A stretch of DNA of 60,006 nucleotides from Verrucomicrobiia bacterium. Its GTDB lineage: Bacteria; Verrucomicrobiota; Verrucomicrobiia; Palsa-1439. The DNA lies in the NCBI GenBank assembly GCA_049511095.1, contig JBEKYJ010000003.1, positions 1 to 60,006 of the forward strand. Direction: 5' to 3'. Below are positions 28,112 through 37,600 of this stretch, in pieces. How positions within the stretch are numbered: position 1 is the stretch's first letter; every line of letters starts with the position of its first letter. The translations under genes were made by a program, and so were the position numbers. The notes under the pieces were generated by a model. The model saw only the letters and a program-made list of their open reading frames with translations, was not told the origin of the DNA and did no database searches.

Positions 28112-31100
28112 ATGGCTGCGATGAAACCTGAAGAGAGTTGGCTGCGCGCTGACGACAAGGTGCGGAAGAACCTGCCGCCGGGCGTGAAACTCGTGCGCAC
28201 GCTACGGGGACATACGGGCTACATCGGGCGCATCGCGTGGTCGCCGGACGGGCGAATGTTGGCCTCGCCGTCGGAGGACAAGACGATCCGGCTGTGGGAT
28301 GCCGAGACGGGCGAGTGCCTGCGCATGCTGGAAGGACACGAGGACCAAGTCTATAGCGTCGCCTTTGATCCGACGGGCCGCACGCTGGCCAGCGGGAGTG
28401 GCGACAAAACGGTCAAGCTGTGGGAGCCGGCCAGCGGCAAACTGCGCCGCACGCTGAAAGGGCACCAGTCCGCGATTTGGAGCGTCGGCTTCGATCCGGC
28501 GGGCCGCACCTTGGCCAGCGGCGGTTCTGACGGGACGGTCAATCTTTGGGATCTGGCCTCTGGAGAAGTTCATCGCACCCTAGGACCACACCCTTCGTAT
28601 GTATCAAGCGTGGCCTTTGACAGACAGGGTTCCTTCCTAGTATGCGCGGTCGGCTTCGGTAGCCCAATGGTCAAGCTGTGGGAGACATCCAGTGGCAAAG
28701 TCCTTCACACCCTCACTGGGCACGAAGGCCAAGTAAATTCTGTCGCTATCGACAACGAGGGACTATCTGTAGCAAGTAGTGCCGGCGATAAGACGATCAA
28801 GTTGTGGGCAGCGGACACTGGACAGCTCATTCGCACTTTAGAAGGACACACGAATGATGTGAATTGCGTCGCATTTATTCGAGATGGGCAACTGTTGGCG
28901 AGCAAAGGCTGTGGCGGCGACAACACTGTGCGCCTCTGGCACAGCAAGAACGGCGTTTGCGTCGCCAAGATCTCGGAGCCAGCTGTGGGGCGAATCGTGC
29001 CTGGTCTTGCCTTCCACCCGCGCCTGCCACTTCTCGCCACGGCCGGTTCAGATCCCGGCACGCCGAGAGAACAGTGTGACCGCGTCATCCACATCTGGGA
29101 GCTGGACCTTGCCGTCCTGCTCGGCCGGGTGGCAGAGCCAACCGCCCACTACGTCAACGCCAAGGTGGTGTTGGTGGGCGACACAGGCGTGGGCAAGACT
29201 GGTCTAAGCCTGGTGTTGAACAGCCAACCCTACAAGGAAACCGACTCGACGGCGGGGCGGCACGTGTGGACGTTCGGTTCACAGGAAGTGAGTGTCGGAA
29301 GCAACGTCACGCAGACCCGCGAGACGCTGTTGTGGGATTTGGCCGGCCAGCCGGGCTACCGCGTCATCCACCAGTTGCACCTCAACGAAGTGGCTGTCGC
29401 GCTCGTGGTGTTCGATGCGCGCAGCGAGACCGATCCGCTGGCCGGCGTCCGGCACTGGGAGCGTGCCTTGCGCCTAGCGCAACAGCGTCAGGGGACCGCA
29501 GGCGTGCCCATGAAGAAGTTTCTGGTGTCCGCCCGCAACGACCGCGGCGGCGTGTCCATCGGTGAGGACCGCGTGCAGAAGATCCTCGATGAATTCGGCT
29601 TCGACGGTTACTTCAAGACCAGCGCCAAGGAAGGCTGGCAGGTCAAAGAATTACGGGCAGCCATTGAGCAGGCGGTCGCTTGGGAAAAGCTGCCGGAGGT
29701 TTCGTCTTCGCAATTGTTCGCCGACATCAAGTCGTTCCTGCTGGAGGTGAAGAAGACGGGACGGTTGCTGGCTCCTGCGGGCCAGCTTTACGACGACTTC
29801 GCCCGCCAGAATCCCGACACGGTGGTGAAAGTGGCGAACCTCCGGGACCAGTTCGTTACGTGCATCGGCCGGCTGGAAAACCGTGACCTGATCCGCCGCC
29901 TGACCTTCGGCGGCTATGTGCTGCTCCAACCGGAACTGTTGGACGCCTATGCCTCCGCGATGGTTAACACGGCGAAAGAGGAACCGGACGGCCTCGGTTC
30001 GCTGGCGGAAGAAGTCGCGCTCGCCGGCAAGTTCTTCGTGCCAAAGGAGCAGAAGATCACGGACGCCGGCCAAGAGCAGTTGCTGTTACACGCGACGGTG
30101 GAAGAACTGGTCCGGCACGACCTGGCGCTGCGGGAAAACGCGGATGACGGGCGCTACCTGGTCTTTCCATCGCAGTTCAACCGCGATTACGAAGACGCGC
30201 CCGAACCGAAAGGCAAGGCGGTGGCGCTGACCTTCGACGGGCCGGTCCAGAGCCTTTACTCGACGCTGGCGGTGCGGCTAGGTCACAGCGGATTGTTCGC
30301 GACCCGGCGGGTGGAGATGTGGCGAAATGCGGCGGTGTTCACCGCCAAAGCGGGTGGCAAGTGTGGACTGTTCCTGCACGAGTTCGCCGAGGGGCGCGGC
30401 CGCTTGATCCTCTTCTACGACAAACAGGCCAGCATTGAGACGCGCTTCCACTTCGAGGAATTTGTCATAGCCCACGCCAATCAGCGCGCGCTGGATGACA
30501 CGGTCGAACTTGTGCGCTTCTTCGTGTGTCCCGATTGTGGCGACCCGGTGCCCGACAGTTATGTGAAGCGACTCAGGGAAAAAGGAACAATGGAGTTCAA
30601 TTGTCCTTGCGGCGGAACCGTGTCACTGGCCGAGCCGAAGGAGCGGATTCACTTCAAATCGAAAGTTGAGGCGATGGAGAAATCCGCCGACCGACAGCGG
30701 GACTTCGATGCGTTCGTCCTGTCGGCCAAGGGGGAGACGAGGACGAGGAGCTTCCAAGACTGGGCCGGAGGCGAGCGGGTCACGCTGGCGATTGTGTTCA
30801 CCGATGTCGTCGGCTCGACGGCCCTGGGAGAGGAAATCAGGGATGAGGCCATGGACGCAGTCCGGCGGGCGCACTTTGCCCAAAGCCGGAAGCTGATCGG
30901 CCAGTTCAAGGGCCGGGAAATCAAGACCATTGGCGACAGCTTCATGGCGGCGTTCAGATCCGTGGATGCCGCTCTGGACTACGCTTTGGCGTTGCATGGG
31001 AATACCGGCCATCCGCAGGTGCAGATTCGCGCCGGCATTCATATCGGGCCGATGCAGGTGGAGGAAGGCGATGTGTTCGGCGGCACCGTGAACTTCGCCG

Positions 31101-31273
31101 CCCGCGTGGTTGGCGCCATTCAGGGTGCGGAAATCTGGCTGAGCGAGCGGGCGAAAGAAGACATTGATCGGCTCGGTGCCGCACAGCACAAAGGGTTGGG
31201 ATGGAAACAGCACGAGCGGGTCACCATGAAGGGCTTCCCCGGCACCTTCACTCTTTGGTCGTTGCGGAAGTAA
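28112..31273 (+). CDS. WD40 (7 blades) - Roc/Ras-like GTPase - COR-like - zinc ribbon - class III adenylate/guanylate cyclase multidomain protein
   Basis: Seven GH...D-K-T-[IV]-[KR]-LW blades (aa 25-335). GTPase motifs G1 GDTGVGKT, G3 WDLAGQ and SARND (aa 349-520). Zinc ribbon CPDCG...CPCGG (aa 806-834). Cyclase motifs FTDVVGST, KTIGDSFMAAF and GGTVNFAARV (aa 888-1050). Confidence 0.9.
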   Translation: MAAMKPEESWLRADDKVRKNLPPGVKLVRTLRGHTGYIGRIAWSPDGRMLASPSEDKTIRLWDAETGECLRMLEGHEDQVYSVAFDPTGRTLASGSGDKTVKLWEPASGKLRRTLKGHQSAIWSVGFDPAGRTLASGGSDGTVNLWDLASGEVHRTLGPHPSYVSSVAFDRQGSFLVCAVGFGSPMVKLWETSSGKVLHTLTGHEGQVNSVAIDNEGLSVASSAGDKTIKLWAADTGQLIRTLEGHTNDVNCVAFIRDGQLLASKGCGGDNTVRLWHSKNGVCVAKISEPAVGRIVPGLAFHPRLPLLATAGSDPGTPREQCDRVIHIWELDLAVLLGRVAEPTAHYVNAKVVLVGDTGVGKTGLSLVLNSQPYKETDSTAGRHVWTFGSQEVSVGSNVTQTRETLLWDLAGQPGYRVIHQLHLNEVAVALVVFDARSETDPLAGVRHWERALRLAQQRQGTAGVPMKKFLVSARNDRGGVSIGEDRVQKILDEFGFDGYFKTSAKEGWQVKELRAAIEQAVAWEKLPEVSSSQLFADIKSFLLEVKKTGRLLAPAGQLYDDFARQNPDTVVKVANLRDQFVTCIGRLENRDLIRRLTFGGYVLLQPELLDAYASAMVNTAKEEPDGLGSLAEEVALAGKFFVPKEQKITDAGQEQLLLHATVEELVRHDLALRENADDGRYLVFPSQFNRDYEDAPEPKGKAVALTFDGPVQSLYSTLAVRLGHSGLFATRRVEMWRNAAVFTAKAGGKCGLFLHEFAEGRGRLILFYDKQASIETRFHFEEFVIAHANQRALDDTVELVRFFVCPDCGDPVPDSYVKRLREKGTMEFNCPCGGTVSLAEPKERIHFKSKVEAMEKSADRQRDFDAFVLSAKGETRTRSFQDWAGGERVTLAIVFTDVVGSTALGEEIRDEAMDAVRRAHFAQSRKLIGQFKGREIKTIGDSFMAAFRSVDAALDYALALHGNTGHPQVQIRAGIHIGPMQVEEGDVFGGTVNFAARVVGAIQGAEIWLSERAKEDIDRLGAAQHKGLGWKQHERVTMKGFPGTFTLWSLRK

Positions 31274-31300: not shown

Positions 31301-31332
31301 CGGAGCGGACGCCTCGGAGAGGCGTCCCTACC
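31301..31332. repeat. REP-like hairpin element, copy 1 (identical 32-mer)
   Basis: The sequence is cggagcGGACGCCTCggaGAGGCGTCCctacc: a 9-bp stem, 3-nt loop and CTACC tail. It is identical to 31469-31500. Confidence 0.85.
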
Positions 31333-31468
31333 AACGACAGGCAAAGGCAACGGCGGCAGGGCGTGTCGTCAGGCTCCGCTATCGGGAATTGATATTATTG
31401 CTGGACGGGGTGGGCCGGGGGTGGTATGATGGCGACAGTTGTTTGACAAACGTGTTGGGAGGAAGAAA

Positions 31469-31500
31469 CGGAGCGGACGCCTCGGAGAGGCGTCCCTACC
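31469..31500. repeat. REP-like hairpin element, copy 2 (identical 32-mer)
   Basis: Same 32 nt as 31301-31332. The flanks are also similar (acg.c...aagg). Confidence 0.85.
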
Positions 31501-31668
31501 GACGGCGAAGGAATGATGGTTGGCAAGGGGGTTTGCACTCGCTCGCGCCCGCTCGGCTTCGCACGCTACAACGGCCACTCGGATGGGCTGGGGATTGCCG
31601 CAGGAAAGGAGTTGCGGCGTCTCGAGGACTCGGCTTCCCACGCTACACCAACTTGCCGGTGAACACAG

Positions 31669-31791: not shown

Positions 31792-31866
31792 AAACGAACC
31801 CAACTGAAAAATGCGTAAGCGTCGTAGCATGAAATGGTTAGGGAAAAATTGGAGTTGGGTTCGTTT
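31792..31866. repeat. 13-bp perfect inverted repeat (AAACGAACCCAAC / GTTGGGTTCGTTT) with a 49-nt spacer in an AT-rich spacer upstream of fba
   Basis: Read directly: arms at 31792-31804 and 31854-31866. Related GAACCC/GGGTTC motifs occur at 31939-31946 and 31993-32003. Confidence 0.7.
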
Positions 31867-32061
31867 TGCAAAAAAGACCCAAAAATCGACGAGAAAAGCG
31901 GTAAAAGAAGCACCGGAAGGACGATTTTTGACCGAAATGAACCCAAAGAACACGGCCTGAACCGGACCAAAATGAAGTTTGACGCACTTCGGGGGGTTCG
32001 TTAGTGTCGCTGTTGCGAGGATGTGCCCAGGATCGCGTCGTTTAACGAGGAGAATTCAGAC

Positions 32062-33018
32062 ATGATTGTCACCACCGCACAACTGTTCAAGATCGCCTAC
32101 GGCAAATACGCCCTCGGCGCTTATAACATCAATAATCTGGAGCAAACCGTCGGCCTGTTCAAAGGCAACGTCCAGAGCAAGGCGCCGTTCATCATCCAGC
32201 TCAGCCGGGGCGCGCGCAAATATACGGACAAGCGTTATTTGGAGGCGATGATCCGCACGTCCGAACAGGTGTTCCCCGAGGCGATTTTTGCCGTCCATCT
32301 CGATCACGGCGATGAGCAGACGTGCTACGACTGCATCGATTCCGGGTTTTACAGTTCGGTGATGATCGATGCCAGCCATGAGCCCTTCGAGAAGAACGCC
32401 GAAATCACCAAGCGCGTTGTGGACAAGGCGCACGCCCGCGGCGTGTCCGTCGAGGCGGAACTCGGCATGCTCGGCGGCGTTGAGGAAGACGTCGTCGGCA
32501 CCGTTTGCCTGACGAATCCTGACGAAGCGAAGAGATTTGTTGCGCTGACGAAATGTGATTCTCTGGCGGTGGCCATCGGCACGAGTCACGGCGCGTACAA
32601 GTTCAAGGCGGAGCCGGGCAAGAAGTTCGGGTTGCACTTTGAAGTCATTGAGGCGATCCAGAAGCTGTTGCCGGGCTATCCGATGGTCATGCACGGCAGC
32701 TCGAGCGTGCCCAAGGATGAAGTGGATCGCATCAACAAGGCCGGCGGCAAGATGCTGCAGACCAGCGGCGTTCCCGAGGAGGATTTCCTGCCCGCCGCGA
32801 AGATGGGGGTGTGCAAGGTCAATATCGATACCGATGGCCGCCTGGTATGGACGCGCGTCCATCGCGAGTTTTTCCGCGATCACCCTGACAAGTTTGACCT
32901 GCGCGATCCCGGCAAGATTTATATCGACGAGTACGCCAAGATGATGGCGCACAAGAATCGGGCGCTCGGTTCTGCCGGCCAACTCGACGACGTCCGCGCC
33001 AGGGTCGGCAAGAAGTAA
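32062..33018 (+). CDS. fba: class II fructose-bisphosphate aldolase
   Basis: SD GAGGAG before ATG 32062. AYNINNLEQ, FIIQLSRGA, VHLDHGD and full-length class II aldolase similarity. Confidence 0.95.
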   Translation: MIVTTAQLFKIAYGKYALGAYNINNLEQTVGLFKGNVQSKAPFIIQLSRGARKYTDKRYLEAMIRTSEQVFPEAIFAVHLDHGDEQTCYDCIDSGFYSSVMIDASHEPFEKNAEITKRVVDKAHARGVSVEAELGMLGGVEEDVVGTVCLTNPDEAKRFVALTKCDSLAVAIGTSHGAYKFKAEPGKKFGLHFEVIEAIQKLLPGYPMVMHGSSSVPKDEVDRINKAGGKMLQTSGVPEEDFLPAAKMGVCKVNIDTDGRLVWTRVHREFFRDHPDKFDLRDPGKIYIDEYAKMMAHKNRALGSAGQLDDVRARVGKK

Positions 33019-33025
33019 CGTGCGC

Positions 33026-34135
33026 CTAGCGTTCTTGTGACGCAGGAACCACTGTCAGCCGTTGGCCTTGCGGCTGCGGGGCCGCTGTCTGCTGAATCGA
33101 CGACGGGTTGAACTCCTCTTCCGGGGGGCGGTTGCCAACGACGACCAGGAGCTTTTGCTCCTGTCCGTTCCGAAGCACCGTGAACTCCACGGCATCACCG
33201 ACGCGGTGATAGAACATCGTATTGATAACGTCCGCCGAACGATGCACGCCATTGCTCGTAATGCTCACGAGAACATCGCCGTTGCAGAAACCGGCGGCGG
33301 ATGCCGGCGCATTCGAGTAAATCTGCTGAATGAAGACCTGCCACTGATTGGACTGCGTGGCGTTGATGGCCAGTTGCCGTTCAGAAACGGCGAGGCCGAC
33401 CCAGGTGTGCTGGGGTTGGCCGAATTGCAGAATATCCGCGCTGATCTTGCGCGCGGCGTTGATCGGCAGCGCACAGCATTGGTCGTCCATGTGCGCCGCC
33501 ACGGCAATGCCGACGACTTCGCCGCGCACATTCAGCAACGGGCCGCCTCCCTGTCCGGGCTTAAGCCGGCATTCGGCGCGGATGTGACTGGGGGCGAGAA
33601 AATGCCCGCTGCGTTGAATGTCCAATCCGCCGATAAAGCCCACCACGGGCGTGCTGGGCAAATCGTAGGGAAACCCGATGGCGATCACCATCGACCCGAC
33701 GCGCAGTTCATCGGAATTGCCCTGTGGCAGGAACGGCGTCGCGGTTCCGGTCTCGGGTTCGATCTTCAGCAGGGCCAGATTGGTTTGCGGGTCACGCCCG
33801 AGGATGCGGGCACTGATTTGCCGGCCGTGCCAATCGATCCAACAAGTGTCCGCGTCTTCCACCACGGTGGCGGCAGTCAGGATGTGCCCGTCCCGGTCGA
33901 TAAAAAAGCCGGTTCCGATACGGTACGACGGAATGAGCGAGACCCCGCCGACGTGGAATTGGCGCTGGGCGTGAATTTTGACAATTGCGTCCCTGGATTT
34001 CTCGTAAATCGACGAGACTTCCTGATCGATGGTTTCGAGCAGCCCGGCAGCGAAGACCGCCGTCGGGGTCGTCGCCACAAAGAGCGCGACCCACAAGGTG
34101 GCGCGCCGCCTAGAACTGGACGTTTGGAACGTCAT
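33026..34135 (-). CDS. HtrA/DegP-like trypsin-fold + PDZ protein with all three catalytic residues substituted (pseudoprotease)
   Basis: The S1C scaffold GTGFFIDRDGHILTAATVV / GRDPQTNLALLKI / KPGQGGGPLLN aligns to DegP GSGVII..YVVTNNHVV / GKDPRSDIALIQI / RGNSGGALVN. A PDZ domain follows. Signal peptide from ATG 34135 (MTFQTSSSRRRATLWVALFVATTPTAVFAAG). Confidence 0.85.
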   Translation of the reverse strand: MTFQTSSSRRRATLWVALFVATTPTAVFAAGLLETIDQEVSSIYEKSRDAIVKIHAQRQFHVGGVSLIPSYRIGTGFFIDRDGHILTAATVVEDADTCWIDWHGRQISARILGRDPQTNLALLKIEPETGTATPFLPQGNSDELRVGSMVIAIGFPYDLPSTPVVGFIGGLDIQRSGHFLAPSHIRAECRLKPGQGGGPLLNVRGEVVGIAVAAHMDDQCCALPINAARKISADILQFGQPQHTWVGLAVSERQLAINATQSNQWQVFIQQIYSNAPASAAGFCNGDVLVSITSNGVHRSADVINTMFYHRVGDAVEFTVLRNGQEQKLLVVVGNRPPEEEFNPSSIQQTAAPQPQGQRLTVVPASQER

Positions 34136-34757
34136 AACTGGCAGAGGCGACCGAGATGCGATCCAACACATAGCGAGGAGACGGGGAGTCCGCGTGCGTG
34201 GGAGCCGGCGTCAAGACAGCGCTGTCCGCCGCCGCAGGCTCGTAATCCGCGGGGGTCACCTGCAACAAGCTGGGGAGTGACGCGGCAAACGTACTCGGCG
34301 TGGAAGACCCCGTCTCCGCAAAGATCAACGACGGATTGGTTCCGGCCATTTGGCCGGCGACACTGGCCGGGTCATCCATCTGACGCACGCCCATCCACAT
34401 CAACCCCACAACGACTGCCACCCCCATCGCGCTGGCAAAACGGTAACGCCATACCCGCACTGATTCGACCGCCAAAAGTTCCTCGATATGCCCCAACGCC
34501 TGTTCCCACCGTCCCGTTCGTTGTGCTTCTGCCAAAACTCGGTGATGAAATTCCGAAAGAAAATTGTTGAAATACTCCGGCGCAGGCCGTTCGTACCGTT
34601 TCAGCGCCAGGAGCCGTTGCAGGCGAGCCGTGCGTTGTTCCTGCACCCGGCAATCCGTGCAATCCACCAGGTGCTGGCGCACCTCCGCCGCCGTCTCCGG
34701 TGCGAGCCGCTCCCGCGAGAGATCGTCGAACAATTCTTGTGCTTTCCTGCAATTCAT
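34110..34757 (-). CDS. anti-sigma factor (zf-HC2 type) with one transmembrane helix
   Basis: MNCRKAQELFDDLSRERL...HLVDCTDCRV zinc-finger anti-sigma motif. TM helix FASAMGVAVVVGLMWMGV. Sits directly downstream of the ECF sigma gene. Confidence 0.8.
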   Translation of the reverse strand: MNCRKAQELFDDLSRERLAPETAAEVRQHLVDCTDCRVQEQRTARLQRLLALKRYERPAPEYFNNFLSEFHHRVLAEAQRTGRWEQALGHIEELLAVESVRVWRYRFASAMGVAVVVGLMWMGVRQMDDPASVAGQMAGTNPSLIFAETGSSTPSTFAASLPSLLQVTPADYEPAAADSAVLTPAPTHADSPSPRYVLDRISVASASYDVPNVQF

Positions 34758-34766
34758 AAATGTGAC

Positions 34767-35234
34767 TCACAGATAATCGCTGAGCAATCCCTGCAACTGC
34801 TGCCGGGCGTAGAACAGCCGCGACCGGACGGTGCCTTCCGAGCACTTGATGACCTTCGCGATGTCCGCGTGCGTCATTCCCTGGATGTCATGCATGGTCA
34901 CAACCGCTCTATGGGGTTCAGACAGTTTTTGCAGGGATTCGTTCAATTTTTCGTGAAGCTCGATCAGGGCCACCTCGCGCCGCGGCGTGATATGCGACAT
35001 CATCTCGACGAGATCCGGATCGGTCTGGATGGAGCTGTCCAGATCGTCGAGGCTGTATTGGTTGCGGTTCTTGCGGCGCTTGACGAAGTTGATGGTGCGA
35101 TTAACCGCGATGCGATAGACCCACGTATAGAAACTCGATTGACCGCGAAAGCTGTTGAGGCTCTTGAAGGCTTTAATGAATGTATCCTGCACGAGGTCAT
35201 TGGCGTCCTCGTGGTTGGCCGTCATATGGTACAC
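34767..35234 (-). CDS. ECF (sigma-70 group IV) sigma factor; the conserved N-terminus upstream is cut by an in-frame TAG at 35262-35264
   Basis: Regions 2 and 4 are present (DLVQDTFIKAFKSLNSFRGQSSFYTWVYRIAVN; MTHADIAKVIKCSEGTVRSRLFYARQQL). The same frame upstream reads DDEVLVRRTQRGDSAAFDVLV-TAG-RYKERLYATVYHMT. Confidence 0.8.
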   Translation of the reverse strand: MYHMTANHEDANDLVQDTFIKAFKSLNSFRGQSSFYTWVYRIAVNRTINFVKRRKNRNQYSLDDLDSSIQTDPDLVEMMSHITPRREVALIELHEKLNESLQKLSEPHRAVVTMHDIQGMTHADIAKVIKCSEGTVRSRLFYARQQLQGLLSDYL

Positions 35235-35475
35235 CGTCGCGTACAGCCGTTCCTTGTAACGCTACACCAGGACATCGAATGCGGCGCTGTCACCTCTTTG
35301 GGTGCGACGCACGAGCACTTCGTCGTCTTCGTGCTGCAGGTCAATCTCGCACTCAGTCGTGGGCACTGAGGGGGGCGTGGATGCTTTCGTCCCACCCAAC
35401 AGTCTGCCGCCCAGTTTCAATGTTTCCTTCAGTTTCACAATGATGACGACCGTTGTCCCTAGAGCCAGTGACGGG

Positions 35476-36522
35476 CTACGCCGCGACCGCTTCCTTAAGA
35501 AGCGACCGGCTTTGTTCCGAAAGATAATCTGTGAGCGCTCGGAGCGTTTTTACGTAAACGTTGGATGGCAACACCGCGAGATCAGCTCGAGCGCGAGCAA
35601 TGTACGTGTCAATTGCCGCCAACGACTCGCCAACGACGCCGTTGCCGAGGACGAGACGGAGCAAATGCTGTTGTTCCTGTTGATCATTTCGGAGAATCAT
35701 CGCGCCGAGTTCCTCTCGGGCTTCCGAATTGACGTGTTGCAGCAGCAACAGAAATGGCAGCGTCAGTTTTCCCTTCTTCATGTCTGTTCCAAGCGATTTA
35801 CCGGCCAGCCGTTCCTGACCAAAAATATCCACGCAATCGTCATAAATCTGGTACGCGATCCCCAAATTGGTGCCGTATTCATGTATTGATTTGACGATTG
35901 AGGCGGGCGCGCCGTTCAAAACAGCGCCCAATTCGCAACTGACTGCGAAAAGGGCGCCCGTCTTCATATTGATAATATCGAGGTATTGGTTAAGGCTCAG
36001 ATCAAGGTCGAAACGACGCTGTGTTTGGAGGATTTCTCCCGAGCAAACGGTATTGGTTGCCTCGCTGACTCTGCGGCAAACCTCTGTGGTTGGGTAGCTT
36101 GCAGCAAGTCGCAAAGCATGGGCAAACAGGCAATCCCCCAACAACACGCTTATCTCGTTGCCCCATCGTGAGTTAGATGTGGGAAGACGATGCCTCAGAT
36201 CAGCCTCATCCAGAACGTCGTCGTGTACCAAGGTGGCAACATGGATGAGTTCCACGATGACCGCGAGCGTGATATGTTCTTCTGCAATGCCGCCAGTGGC
36301 TCCGCCTGCCAGAAGCGCGAGGCTTGGACGCAGCCGCTTGCCTGTTCCACCCAAGATGTACTGGATATACTCGCCAAGACGCGGATCAAAACCGCCGACT
36401 TGGGTGGCCAGTGCCATCTCCACGCGAGGCAATTCAGCCGCAATCGGTTCCAGCAATTCCAAAAGGTCTCGCCCGGAACTCGATGTGTGGGAAGTGTGCC
36501 TGCTTACGACCGACCCTAGCAT
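35476..36522 (-). CDS. long-chain polyprenyl diphosphate synthase (IspB-like)
   Basis: Two aspartate-rich motifs, LVHDDVLDEADLRH and YQIYDDCVDIFG. Full-length trans-IPPS similarity. Confidence 0.9.
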   Translation of the reverse strand: MLGSVVSRHTSHTSSSGRDLLELLEPIAAELPRVEMALATQVGGFDPRLGEYIQYILGGTGKRLRPSLALLAGGATGGIAEEHITLAVIVELIHVATLVHDDVLDEADLRHRLPTSNSRWGNEISVLLGDCLFAHALRLAASYPTTEVCRRVSEATNTVCSGEILQTQRRFDLDLSLNQYLDIINMKTGALFAVSCELGAVLNGAPASIVKSIHEYGTNLGIAYQIYDDCVDIFGQERLAGKSLGTDMKKGKLTLPFLLLLQHVNSEAREELGAMILRNDQQEQQHLLRLVLGNGVVGESLAAIDTYIARARADLAVLPSNVYVKTLRALTDYLSEQSRSLLKEAVAA

Positions 36523-36688
36523 AGTAGAGCTACTCTACGGGCCGCTGGAAGGGGTGTCAACCCATAAGCCCGTAGTTCCGCCGCAGCAGTTCACTCTTGA
36601 CCACTTGACGACCACGGACAAAAATGGAGAACGTCAGGTCTACGAGTTGCACCTGCCATGTTGCAGTACGCTGATCCGTACACTCGTT

Positions 36689-37600
36689 ATGCTGCGTCTG
36701 ATTCCAGTCCTGATCGTCCTGTTGTTCGCCGGCTGCGCGCGGAGCCCCGAGCGCGCTGCCCTCAGCAAGGCCAACGCTTTGTTGGACGAAGGCCGCGTCC
36801 AAGCTGCGTTGGACACGGTCCAGGATTATCTTCGGCAACATCCCGATTCCGCACCTCTCTTGCGAATGCGCGTCGTGGTTTTGCTCCGCCAGGAACAAAC
36901 TGATCTGGCGGCGCTCGCGTTGCAGAAACTCCCCGGCGGTGATCCTGTCCTTGCGGAGATGCTGCGTCATCGCGACCGCATCGTCCGCGAGAATGCCGCC
37001 AAGCTCATTGCGGTTCAGCCCAACGCGGGCAATTTCCATGAGATCGTCCGCGCTCTGGATGACCAGGACCCCGCGGTGCGACGATACTGCGCGCGCGCCC
37101 TGGGCCGGCTCGGCAACCCCTCGGCCCTCAAGCCGCTGTTCCAGTTGCTCTCCGACGACAACTGGTTCGTGCGCGCAGAGGCCGCCACCGCACTCGGCAG
37201 GATCGGTGATGATCGCGCGGTGGGTTGGCTGGTTCAGTTGCTGTCGGATCAGGACGGTTACGTGCGCTACAGTGCAACCAGCGCTCTCCACGACCTCGCC
37301 AAGGAGTCGTCCCGTTCCTTGTTGCTGCGCACCCTGGAATCGGCAGGATCAGCAGATCAATTCTGGATTGCGGTCGCGTTGGCCAAGCTCCATGACCCCG
37401 CAGTCTTGACTCCACTGGCAAACGTTGTCCAAAGCAAAGACGTCGATGTCCGGCGCCTCGCCGCCGAAGCACTCGGCGAATGCGGTTTGGCGGCGGGCAC
37501 AAATGCGCTCGCGGTCTTGATTCAGGACCCGGACCGGTCCGTAAGAGAACAGGCGCAGGCAGCCATGGGACAGATTGCAGCAAGCAGCAAAAAACGGTGA
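36689..37600 (+). CDS. HEAT-repeat (PBS-lyase-like) lipoprotein
   Basis: ATG 36689. Signal peptide with lipobox LLFAGC. Repeated D..P.VR..AA.ALG units. The ORF upstream of 36689 is antisense to ispB. Confidence 0.8.
   Translation: MLRLIPVLIVLLFAGCARSPERAALSKANALLDEGRVQAALDTVQDYLRQHPDSAPLLRMRVVVLLRQEQTDLAALALQKLPGGDPVLAEMLRHRDRIVRENAAKLIAVQPNAGNFHEIVRALDDQDPAVRRYCARALGRLGNPSALKPLFQLLSDDNWFVRAEAATALGRIGDDRAVGWLVQLLSDQDGYVRYSATSALHDLAKESSRSLLLRTLESAGSADQFWIAVALAKLHDPAVLTPLANVVQSKDVDVRRLAAEALGECGLAAGTNALAVLIQDPDRSVREQAQAAMGQIAASSKKR

Follow-up and report, generated by a model that had tools for sequence, protein, structure and literature searches.

A conserved, catalytically dead HtrA-family protein encoded beside an ECF sigma factor and a Phe-tailed membrane anti-sigma factor in Verrucomicrobiota

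Why would an operon for an ECF sigma factor and its anti-sigma factor end in a member of the HtrA protease family that has lost its whole catalytic triad? Bacteria report envelope damage mainly through ECF sigma/anti-sigma systems, and in the best-understood example, that of E. coli, the response is driven by the cut that DegS, the site-1 protease, makes in the anti-sigma factor. To our knowledge, almost nothing is known about envelope-stress sensing in the Verrucomicrobiota, a phylum that includes abundant bacteria of soil, freshwater and gut. The locus described here lies on the minus strand of a stretch of 60,006 nucleotides from a Verrucomicrobiia bacterium, hereafter called the window.

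A sigma, anti-sigma and HtrA operon

The gene order sigma, anti-sigma, HtrA that had been read from this DNA is present as described, in the form of three minus-strand ORFs (Table 1). The anti-sigma gene begins 7 nt past the sigma stop, and the 26-nt overlap originally claimed between the anti-sigma and HtrA genes agrees with an anti-sigma stop that ends at 34110 and an HtrA ATG at 34135. On sibling contigs, gene calling likewise begins the protein (369 aa) at this ATG, and in 16/16 window-clade loci it is embedded in the anti-sigma Tyr-Asp/Glu codons (TATGA), with an overlap of 26 or 29 nt, which bears out the translational coupling that had been proposed for the two genes. The polyprenyl diphosphate synthase gene upstream of the sigma gene is possibly co-transcribed with the operon; its adjacency is kept in the window clade, in most of the loci L022-L099, and in L180 and L182, and is not conserved in the Chthoniobacterales loci. 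We looked upstream of the sigma gene for a conserved promoter of the ECF type and found no clear motif, since the intergenic space there is just 10-50 nt and the sequence further upstream is coding.

Table 1. Features of the sigma/anti-sigma/HtrA locus, with positions in the window
Feature	Position	Strand	Basis or remark
Polyprenyl diphosphate synthase gene	35476..36522	-	Pfam polyprenyl_synt; directly upstream, 37 nt from sigma start
RpoE-like ECF sigma gene, 223 codons, GTG start	34767..35438	-	Pfam; interrupted by in-frame stop
In-frame TAG, sigma codon 59	35262..35264	-	Orthologues have Glu, Gly, Gln, Asp or Arg there
Single-pass anti-sigma factor, 215 aa	34110..34757	-	Pfam zf-HC2
HxxxCxxC zinc motif HLVDCTDC, anti-sigma domain	34650..34673	-	Pfam and sequence
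Predicted transmembrane helix FASAMGVAVVVGLMWMGV	34386..34439	-	Highest Kyte-Doolittle window of the anti-sigma factor
Conserved periplasmic tail PRYVLDRISVASASYDVPNVQF-COOH	34113..34178	-	Proposed PDZ or cleft ligand
Overlap of anti-sigma 3' end and dead-HtrA start, 26 nt	34110..34135	-	ATG within Tyr-Asp codons (TATGA)
Catalytically dead HtrA-family protein, 369 aa	33026..34135	-	Pfam Trypsin_2 and PDZ_2
Predicted signal peptide MTFQTSSSRRRATLWVALFVATTPTAVFA/A	34046..34135	-	Sequence only: basic n-region (SRRR), hydrophobic core, AxA-type site (VFA/A)
Chymotrypsin-fold (Trypsin_2) domain	33506..33916	-	Remodelled, conserved cleft: GTGFF, GxD..F, THIR, PGQxGGP
Thr (ACC), T102, at catalytic His site	33866..33868	-	phmmer and MAFFT alignments
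Asn (AAT), N131, at catalytic Asp site	33779..33781	-	phmmer and MAFFT alignments
Gly (GGA), G208, at catalytic Ser site	33548..33550	-	phmmer and MAFFT alignments
WVGL, PDZ start, aligned to DegS YIGI carboxylate-binding loop	33392..33403	-	Alignment
PDZ domain	33143..33355	-	PDZ_2, 46.5 bits

Within the sigma gene, the ORF 34767-35234 matches Sigma70_r2 and r4_2 in Pfam, and Sigma70_ECF is also matched. The protein has regions 2 and 4 only, as expected of an ECF (group 4) factor. TIGR02937 is matched at 114.9 bits (cut-off 42.9), and the best NCBIfam match is RpoE (TIGR02939) at 155 bits, below its cut-off of 236. Over its whole length the frame aligns with 15 intact orthologues, and the gene has a dN/dS of 0.07-0.13. 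In the window itself, this frame is interrupted by an in-frame TAG, a stop codon that is absent from the original prediction. The Logan contig SRR7027834_46979, from a sibling assembly, is identical to 31806-37135 of the window (5.3 kb) but for one base, which gives GAG and not TAG, and the sigma frame is intact there. Both truncated sigma products were looked up in a protein collection and neither was found there, so that the TAG allele is without an independent sighting. The nonsense codon marks either a loss-of-function allele of very recent origin or an error in the assembly.

An HtrA fold with the catalytic triad replaced

The last protein of the operon belongs to the HtrA/S1C family by its chymotrypsin-fold domain and its PDZ domain, with the His-Asp-Ser triad absent. 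In Pfam, the ORF 33026-34171 matches Trypsin_2 (87.7 bits) and PDZ_2 (46.5 bits), both above their cut-offs, and phmmer matches to solved HtrA structures reach down to E = 3e-38. When the mature protein was modelled in AlphaFold2 as a fusion with the last 62 anti-sigma residues, its HtrA part reached a pLDDT above 95, and Foldseek gave the model TM-scores of 0.65-0.87 to DegP, DegQ, DegS, AlgW and MucD. The fold and the PDZ domain are thereby retained, as had been claimed, and so is a signal peptide as far as its sequence can tell, with similar N-termini also found in orthologues. We considered a Tat signal and rejected it, as SRRR is a weak match only and is missing in other clades.

What has not been retained is the triad. 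Alignment by phmmer with the structures of DegP, MucD and HhoA pairs ILTAATVV with ILTNNHVV, DPQTNLALL with DPRSDVAVL, and KPGQGGGPL with NPGNSGGPL, and the same three columns are returned when MAFFT aligns the protein with DegP and DegS of E. coli. The replacements of His by Thr, Asp by Asn and Ser by Gly are found at exactly the codons that the original prediction had named, and neither profile nor pairwise alignments place His, Asp or Ser elsewhere in the protein. Judged from this sequence, activation of proteolysis by peptide binding to the PDZ domain, in the manner of DegS, is excluded by the missing triad.

Could the protein still cleave through non-canonical residues, for instance with the His of THIR and the glycine-rich oxyanion loop? 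Such an enzyme would agree with the strong conservation of the PGQxGGP loop and of family-specific His and Arg residues near the cleft. The nucleophile site, however, is conserved as no nucleophile, carrying Gly, Ala, Ile, Val and rarely Ser across the family, no replacement triad is evident, and the scores against curated NCBIfam models for HtrA proteases stay far below their cut-offs (TIGR02037, 169 of 416 bits; DegS TIGR02038, 116 of 423; DegP NF008189, 102 of 720), all of which makes residual cleavage very improbable in our view. The protein probably works by binding, not cutting. Its conserved surfaces are the PGQxGGP L1 loop, the loop-L3 region (GxD..F, THIR), the W-x-G carboxylate-binding loop and a stretch around D314 and F320. 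Among 163 family members, W257 is conserved in 99% and G259 in 100%, and these residues align with Y258 and G260 of DegS; D314 and F320 are invariant, family-specific residues within a predicted helix stretch of the PDZ domain.

The dead state of the triad is a property of the whole family. His or Asp occurs at the triad sites in none of 120 close homologues and in none of 163 genome-derived family members (0/283 together), and Ser at the nucleophile site in 6 and 4 of these, respectively. The nearest ~60 cluster representatives at 50% identity are all dead, live H-D-S HtrAs appearing only lower in the ranking, and the dead state extends to every relative down to about 28% identity. Furthermore, the gene is under purifying selection, with a dN/dS of 0.19-0.29, and the trio of a sigma factor, a small membrane protein and a dead HtrA is found at about 165 Verrucomicrobiota loci, with the gene for the membrane protein sitting between the other two. 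These comprise 15/15 complete window-clade loci, about 70 loci in Methylacidiphilales, subdivision 6 and Verrucomicrobiales, 76/80 loci in Chthoniobacterales, and three still more distant members. For a decaying pseudogene of a live htrA speak the three substitutions themselves and nothing further; we reject this explanation, as the frame is intact, dN/dS is ~0.2, the dead triad is shared by all relatives and the synteny is phylum-wide. The survey found no orthologue with an intact triad, and this is therefore not merely a decaying copy: the protein is, as had been proposed, a conserved, secreted, PDZ-bearing pseudoprotease next to a membrane anti-sigma factor. Presumably the triad was lost in the common ancestor of the family, which was then kept as a binding protein. 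The labels that these proteins currently carry, 'serine protease Do' or 'S1C family serine protease', are misleading, and the module provides a clean sequence marker for Verrucomicrobiota.

The anti-sigma tail and what may hold it

The anti-sigma factor matches zf-HC2 in Pfam at 23.2 bits against a cut-off of 22.2, and some of its homologues (n=120) are named zf-HC2 or anti-sigma YlaD in their sources. With an N-terminal HxxxCxxC domain and a gene directly downstream of the sigma gene, it is of the zinc-binding (ZAS-type, class I) kind. Proteins of the window clade and of L180 carry this motif, and it is missing from the shorter partners in other clades; as the zinc-finger domain is missing in most clades, anti-sigma function there is assigned from position and a conserved cytoplasmic motif only. 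The protein has one hydrophobic span, read from its sequence at residues 107-124, and the flanking Arg residues suggest its membrane topology. Beyond the membrane, a hypervariable and apparently disordered periplasmic linker leads to 18-22 conserved residues at the very end.

This tail has the consensus PRYVLD..SY[DE]..Φ-x-F-COOH, or in fuller form P-R-Y-V-L-D ... S-Y-[D/E]-x3-4-Φ-x-Phe-COOH. Phe is the C-terminal residue in 118 of the 120 homologues and in 146 of 147 unique tails taken from about 165 loci. Among the latter, position -2 is hydrophobic in 140, position -6 is Tyr in 113 and position -5 is Asp or Glu in 118, while the spacing from the RYVL box to the C-terminus is 17 residues in 110/144 tails. 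PEP-CTERM or another sorting signal as the meaning of the Phe tail was rejected, since the tail lacks the motif architecture of such signals. DegS and AlgW have PDZ domains that bind C-termini of the types Y-x-F and W-V-F. Titles of PDB entries among the Foldseek matches name DegS with the peptides YQF, YRF and DNRLGLVYQF, and for AlgW the binding of its PDZ domain to the C-terminal W-V-F of MucE has been described (PMC8545111). As such, the Φ-x-Phe tail is a plausible PDZ ligand. Its occurrence on a partner membrane protein is a new observation, phylum-wide; our literature search found no paper on a dead HtrA beside an anti-sigma factor, nor on the module in Verrucomicrobia, which also goes unmentioned in the main text of the paper that re-classified the ECF factors.

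So what could the dead HtrA do with this tail? We consider it about as probable as not (roughly 0.5) that it holds the anti-sigma tail and gates the anti-sigma factor's destruction within a three-gene envelope-signalling module; the data above show the anatomy, the lost triad, the purifying selection and the conserved trio and tail, and from these we infer the physical contact, which way the regulation runs and what the signal is. Its PDZ domain would bind the terminal Φ-x-Phe, much as DegS and AlgW use theirs to bind outer-membrane proteins and MucE by the C-terminus, and the PRYVLD box upstream might lie in the remodelled, non-cleaving cleft. The bound protein, probably a trimer, would shield the anti-sigma factor from the proteases that destroy it, in a role resembling that of RseB/MucB. 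Envelope stress would then free the tail, the simplest signal being unassembled outer-membrane proteins whose free Φ-x-Phe ends compete for the PDZ domain, and release of the tail would lead to degradation of the anti-sigma factor and to a free sigma factor.

The conservation of the tail and of the PDZ loop speaks for this contact. In the AlphaFold2 fusion, the tail is an undocked coil with a pLDDT of 31-40, in a monomer and with no alignment depth for the tail; built with alignment depth for HtrA only, this is a negative but weak test. A single-sequence run of the same fusion, at a mean pLDDT of 34.5, gave no usable model. Mutual information between the last 12 tail positions and the HtrA columns shows no enrichment of the PDZ domain (16/50 top pairs against 105/302 columns), and the top pair joins tail position -1 to H322, within the PDZ domain.

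Both results are compatible with a dead HtrA that never touches the anti-sigma factor and is an effector of the sigma regulon only, a periplasmic holdase or a sponge for the C-termini of unfolded outer-membrane proteins, comparable to a protease-dead DegP or to the negative feedback by MucD. Some other protein would then be the reader of the Phe tail, for instance a C-terminal processing protease, RseP with its PDZ domains, or the BAM machinery. Genes of the htrA type are commonly effectors in ECF operons, as in algU-mucABCD and mycobacterial sigE-rseA-htrA, plain regulon membership would also explain the co-location, and a conserved cleft and PDZ domain suit general client binding equally well. 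However, the trio is strictly syntenic at about 165 loci, the genes of the anti-sigma factor and the dead HtrA are translationally coupled, and the partner tail fits the ligand class of HtrA PDZ domains. Moreover, a chaperone role does not need complete loss of the triad, and the antiquity of that loss suggests a dedicated binding function. We regard the effector role as possible, though clearly less probable than a hold on the tail.

The conservation of cleft, PDZ domain and tail would be the same if the dead HtrA were an adaptor or regulatory subunit that catches the tail in its PDZ domain and presents it to a live protease, either in a mixed HtrA oligomer or of the Ctp/Prc type, and thus a positive regulator of sigma release. 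The fixed spacing between PRYVLD and the C-terminus recalls the distance from PDZ domain to active site in DegP, which Krojer and co-workers are said to have found in 2008 to set the lengths of its products. Plants are known to have mixed HtrA oligomers whose subunits differ in function, Deg5/Deg8 being one case (PMC3640471). Against this, no linked live HtrA or Ctp gene was found in any locus examined, and we think an adaptor unlikely.

Returning to a dead HtrA that holds the tail, a more specific version may be proposed, tentatively and with considerable doubt, in which the module would sense outer-membrane-protein assembly in one step, by competitive displacement. Here the anti-sigma C-terminus would mimic an unassembled outer-membrane protein in its Φ-x-Phe end and would be parked in the PDZ domain of a pseudo-DegS, possibly also in its dead cleft. 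A bulky dead-HtrA oligomer on a short disordered tail could block the intramembrane protease until accumulating outer-membrane proteins compete the tail off, after which the naked short stub would be cut directly by the site-2 protease. A site-1 protease would be unneeded, and an ancestral DegS-like protease would have been turned from a cutter into a lock.

The module among known systems

Verrucomicrobiota appear to use a DegS relative that is unable to cut, paired with an anti-sigma factor bearing the kind of C-terminal signal that DegS reads on other proteins. Should the proposed contact be true, it would show how evolution can turn a signalling protease into a receptor or a lock, and envelope-stress sensing in this phylum would gain a testable handle in the form of a 20-residue peptide, one PDZ domain and one terminal Phe.

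The closest parallel is the rpoE-rseA-rseB/DegS system of E. coli, which likewise has an RpoE-like ECF sigma factor, a single-pass anti-sigma factor and, right after it, a gene for a periplasmic accessory protein (rseB), while DegS shares the HtrA fold and a single PDZ domain of the type that recognises Φ-x-Phe C-termini. Unlike RseB, the accessory protein here is an HtrA homologue for which canonical cleavage is impossible, and it has no MucB_RseB match in Pfam or NCBIfam, so that its likeness to RseB is one of gene position and proposed role only. The anti-sigma factor is of the zinc-finger type without homology to RseA, and it carries the Φ-x-Phe end itself, such ends not being confined here to outer-membrane proteins. 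In mycobacteria, sigE-rseA-htrA (pepD) encodes an ECF sigma factor, a zinc-type anti-sigma factor and an HtrA homologue, in the same order as here, but the mycobacterial HtrA/PepD proteins are active serine proteases, and we know of no conserved Phe tail in mycobacterial RseA. PepD has been treated in its own right (PMC3062566).

In Pseudomonas, an HtrA homologue also closes the operon algU-mucA-mucB-mucC-mucD, and MucD is among the best matches of the dead HtrA in both sequence and fold; the W-V-F end of MucE bound by the AlgW PDZ domain (PMC8545111) offers a further likeness. Yet both MucD and AlgW are active proteases whose triads are intact, there are two PDZ domains in MucD, and the Verrucomicrobiota module is without MucB or MucC and has its Phe tail on the anti-sigma factor. 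Lastly, MamO of magnetotactic bacteria (PMC4794232) differs in that it binds transition metals, is fused to a TauE-like membrane domain and has no link to a sigma/anti-sigma pair, and its sequence relationship to the dead HtrA is at the general HtrA level only (a weak NCBIfam match of 38 bits). The two are alike in having an HtrA/trypsin fold, a degenerate triad and a non-proteolytic function, which for the dead HtrA is the probable one, and if the contact with the anti-sigma tail is true, this family would be, after MamO, a second case of an HtrA put to new use in bacteria.

Catalytic triad of the HtrA-like protein

Four co-directional genes occupy positions 33026-36522 on the minus strand, and one of them encodes an HtrA-like protein for which the original prediction had read Thr, Asn and Gly at the catalytic His, Asp and Ser positions. 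In a phmmer search against solved structures the best match was a DegP-like protease (E = 2.9e-38), followed by MucD, HhoA, AlgW, DegQ, DegP and DegS. The query reads ILTAATVV opposite ILTNNHVV at the His site, DPQTNLALL opposite DPRSDVAVL at the Asp site, and KPGQGGGPL opposite NPGNSGGPL at the Ser site, and aligning it to E. coli DegP and DegS in MAFFT gave the identical three columns. Given these two alignments and the exact codon positions (see table), all three substitutions are confirmed, and the observation was therefore right at every coordinate. Public annotations of relatives of this protein, here called the dead HtrA, read ‘serine protease Do’, ‘S1-C subfamily serine protease’ or ‘S1C family serine protease’, misleading labels for proteins without the catalytic triad.

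The dead state is not confined to the window. In its 120 closest homologues, at 53-95% identity, T, A or S stands in the His column, N, R or K in the Asp column, and G, A, S or C in the Ser column; a His at the His site or an Asp at the Asp site was found in none of the 120. When 1.84 billion cluster representatives were searched exhaustively, the roughly 60 best full-length matches all proved dead (28-51% identical, 320-400 aa, one PDZ domain), with triads as varied as TNG, SNG, SNS, AGI, SGG, SGA, EGL and others, and intact H-D-S HtrAs rank only below them. Translation of genome loci gave 163 family members, in which His, Asp and Ser occupy their respective positions 0, 0 and 4 times. None of the curated NCBIfam HtrA models comes near its cut-off; TIGR02037, for example, reaches 169 bits against 416. 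The fold itself is well predicted: the HtrA part of the AlphaFold2 model has a pLDDT mostly above 95 and a pTM of 0.77, and superposes on DegP, DegQ, DegS, AlgW and MucD with target-normalised TM-scores of up to 0.87. Within the HtrA family these dead proteins form a branch of their own, and an old one. A merely decaying copy, which the original prediction had allowed for and proposed to settle by surveying orthologues, is refuted by the conservation of the dead triad in relatives and by a dN/dS of 0.19-0.29 (pairwise against four orthologues).

What is near-invariant across the 163 members is the structural core, the glycine-rich L1 loop P-G-Q-x-G-G-P, which is the oxyanion-hole loop and in which the nucleophile position itself varies, and a family-specific G-x-D...F plus T-x-H-I-R in the region where live HtrAs have loop L3 and the QTDA motif. 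The same holds in the PDZ domain for W257-x-G259, aligned with the carboxylate-binding loop Y258-I-G260 of DegS, and for the family-specific D314 and F320, which fall in a helix of the model. We read this pattern as one in which the peptide-binding surfaces were probably kept and the chemistry lost; non-canonical catalysis by the dead HtrA seems very improbable to us. The protein's own Pro-rich C-terminal tail, of low confidence in the AlphaFold2 model, is variable and followed by a semi-conserved end, ..TVVPASQE in the closest relatives of the window locus (the window clade) and ..PVKG[ST] elsewhere.

Gene order, spread and the interrupted sigma gene

Features of the dead HtrA locus and its surroundings
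Feature	Position	Strand	Details
WD40/Roc multidomain protein	28112-31273	plus	1053 aa
36-nt element, first copy	31301-31336
36-nt element, second copy	31469-31504
Class II fructose-bisphosphate aldolase gene	32023-33018		convergent to HtrA-like gene
HtrA-like protein	33026-34135	minus	Pfam Trypsin_2 + PDZ_2
Semi-conserved C-terminus of dead HtrA	33029-33060
Ser-site codon	33548-33550	minus	GGA
Asp-site codon	33779-33781	minus	AAT
His-site codon	33866-33868	minus	ACC
Anti-sigma	34110-34757	minus	215 aa; N-terminal zf-HC2 motif HLVDCTDC + one hydrophobic span
LLxLKR... motif of anti-sigma	34527-34622		residues 46-77, after zinc finger
ECF sigma factor gene	34767-35438	minus	GTG start
In-frame TAG	35262-35264	minus	within sigma gene
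Polyprenyl diphosphate synthase gene	35476-36522	minus
HEAT-repeat protein	36674-37597	plus	HEAT_2 165 bits; divergent from polyprenyl synthase gene

The order polyprenyl synthase, sigma, anti-sigma, dead HtrA and convergent aldolase recurs in every complete locus of the window clade (15 of 15). The genome loci closest to that of the window are all MAGs of Verrucomicrobiia, which puts the source of the sequence in, or close to, an uncultured member of this class. A scan with ten dead representatives of the ‘xGI’ type yielded 78 loci of unchanged gene order, nearly all labelled Verrucomicrobiota (Methylacidiphilales, subdivision 6, Verrucomicrobiales and others). The ‘SGG/SGA’ type gave 80 loci of Chthoniobacterales, Spartobacteria and Udaeobacter, with a sigma gene just upstream in 76 and the locus cut by contig ends in the remaining four. 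In three more distant members, retrieved by exact-protein look-up, the dead HtrA again lies behind a Sigma70_ECF gene and a small membrane protein. The module of sigma factor, membrane protein and dead HtrA is phylum-wide in Verrucomicrobiota. Its most conserved gene is that of the sigma factor, at 45-60% identity across the phylum with a dN/dS of 0.07-0.13; the best curated match is RpoE, under the cut-off.

The sigma gene of the window is itself interrupted, its translation running ...AFDVLV*RYKERLY.... All 15 sigma orthologues are intact and carry Glu, Gly, Gln, Asp or Arg at this site. The 12.7-kb Logan contig SRR7027834_46979, an independent assembly, equals window positions 31806-37135 over 5330 nt apart from one base, having GAG (Glu) for TAG. 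In a collection of 15 billion proteins the intact sigma protein occurs on two contigs, and neither truncated product was found. Either the source assembly contains a base error at the TAG or the nonsense allele arose very recently; the family-level conclusions are unaffected. If the TAG is real, it would leave an organism without full-length sigma factor, as a product re-initiated at the GTG at 35234 would lack the start of region 2.

The surroundings hold further features. The likely N-terminus of the HEAT-repeat protein, MLRLIPVLIVLLFAGC, resembles a lipoprotein signal with a lipobox. The 1053-aa protein has a WD40 propeller at its N-terminus, a Roc-type GTPase domain and a C-terminal stretch, FTDVVGST...GDSFMAAF, that reads like a class III nucleotide cyclase, which would be a signalling architecture unusual in bacteria. 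Between its gene and that of the aldolase, a stretch of about 750 nt without convincing ORFs includes both copies (97% identical) of a 36-nt element with the hairpin GGACGCCTC-GGA-GAGGCGTCC; no further copies were found in the window, nor any Rfam match or tRNA.

The partner tail and a candidate contact with the dead HtrA

Anti-sigma orthologues align through a hypervariable, Ser/Thr/Pro/Ala-rich periplasmic linker into a sharply conserved end, PRYVLDRIsvTPASY[DE]Vp.v.F, with PRYVLDRISVASASYDVPNVQF as the C-terminal 22-mer in the window. The terminal Phe is present in 118 of 120 database homologues, both exceptions being truncated. In other clades the product of the middle gene is shorter (135-205 aa) and without zinc finger. 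It shares the conserved cytoplasmic motif LLxLKRxExPxxxYFxxFxxEFHxRQR, has a single membrane span and a variable linker, and ends alike, e.g. in PRYVLDRLPVSYEPSFNF or PLYVNGHGAVAYDSRLAF. Over 147 unique tails, position 0 is Phe in 146 (Tyr once), position -2 is Phe, Leu, Val, Ile or Met in 140, position -5 is Asp or Glu in 118 and position -6 is Tyr in 113; the RYVL box lies 17 residues from the C-terminus in 110 of 144 tails. The cytoplasmic motif stands at the N-terminus of the partner in most Verrucomicrobiota clades (related loci L022-L179), where the zinc-finger anti-sigma domain is absent, and recurs behind the zinc finger of the window anti-sigma. This motif may be the actual sigma-binding element, as in class II anti-sigma factors.

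The overlap between the anti-sigma and HtrA genes, which had been taken to indicate translational coupling, is real. The HtrA start codon is the ATG at 34135, 26 nt within the anti-sigma gene, and is made by the Tyr-Asp/Glu codons of the tail (TATGA) in 16 of 16 window-clade loci, with an overlap of 26 or 29 nt. This start is also the one in gene calls on sibling contigs, which give 369 aa; a longer ORF from 34171 receives no support from orthologues. Dual coding alone does not explain the Tyr-Asp/Glu pair, since clades lacking the overlap conserve it as well.

PDZ domains of HtrA proteins take free Φ-x-Phe carboxy-termini as their class of ligand. Fold matches of the dead HtrA model include DegS crystal structures with YQF, YRF and ...VYQF peptides, and AlgW reads the WVF end of MucE (PMC8545111). 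The main argument for a direct contact is that a non-cutting PDZ protein always adjoins the gene for a membrane protein that always ends in Φ-x-Phe; from this conservation and the known behaviour of HtrA PDZ domains, we infer that the dead HtrA would bind the tail. In an AlphaFold2 fusion the HtrA was confident and the appended 62-residue anti-sigma tail remained a coil (pLDDT 31-40; monomer, with alignment depth for HtrA only). This undocked tail is weak evidence against the contact, because the tail had no alignment and the model was a monomer of a protein family that acts as trimers. Mutual information over 154 pairs (about 70 effective sequences) was highest between tail position -1 and H322, which belongs to the PDZ domain; the PDZ domain was not enriched overall. 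That the dead HtrA is a pure regulon effector, serving as chaperone or sponge, is a possible but doubtful alternative.

Proposed role and comparison with known systems

We favour, at a probability of roughly one half, a periplasmic partner that holds the anti-sigma tail and controls its proteolytic fate. In the simplest version the dead HtrA would shield the tail, and unassembled outer-membrane proteins with competing Φ-x-Phe ends would displace it. Such a shield would by analogy be RseB-like in its role and DegS-like in its recognition. An adaptor that instead presents the tail to a live protease is unlikely.

A full-text literature search found no description of a sigma / anti-sigma / dead HtrA module, and the main text of the ECF re-classification paper does not mention it, while the supplement of that paper may already list such an ECF group. 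The only bacterial HtrA pseudoprotease known to us is MamO. It binds metal (PMC4794232), and its context is unrelated to the module described here, which is of clear interest for envelope-stress signalling and pseudoenzyme research. The logic of the module resembles that of rpoE-rseA-rseB with DegS, and of algU-mucA-mucB-mucD with AlgW and MucE, and its gene order that of mycobacterial sigE-rseA-htrA. Two features set it apart from all of these: a dead HtrA homologue, and an anti-sigma that itself carries the Phe-terminated signal.
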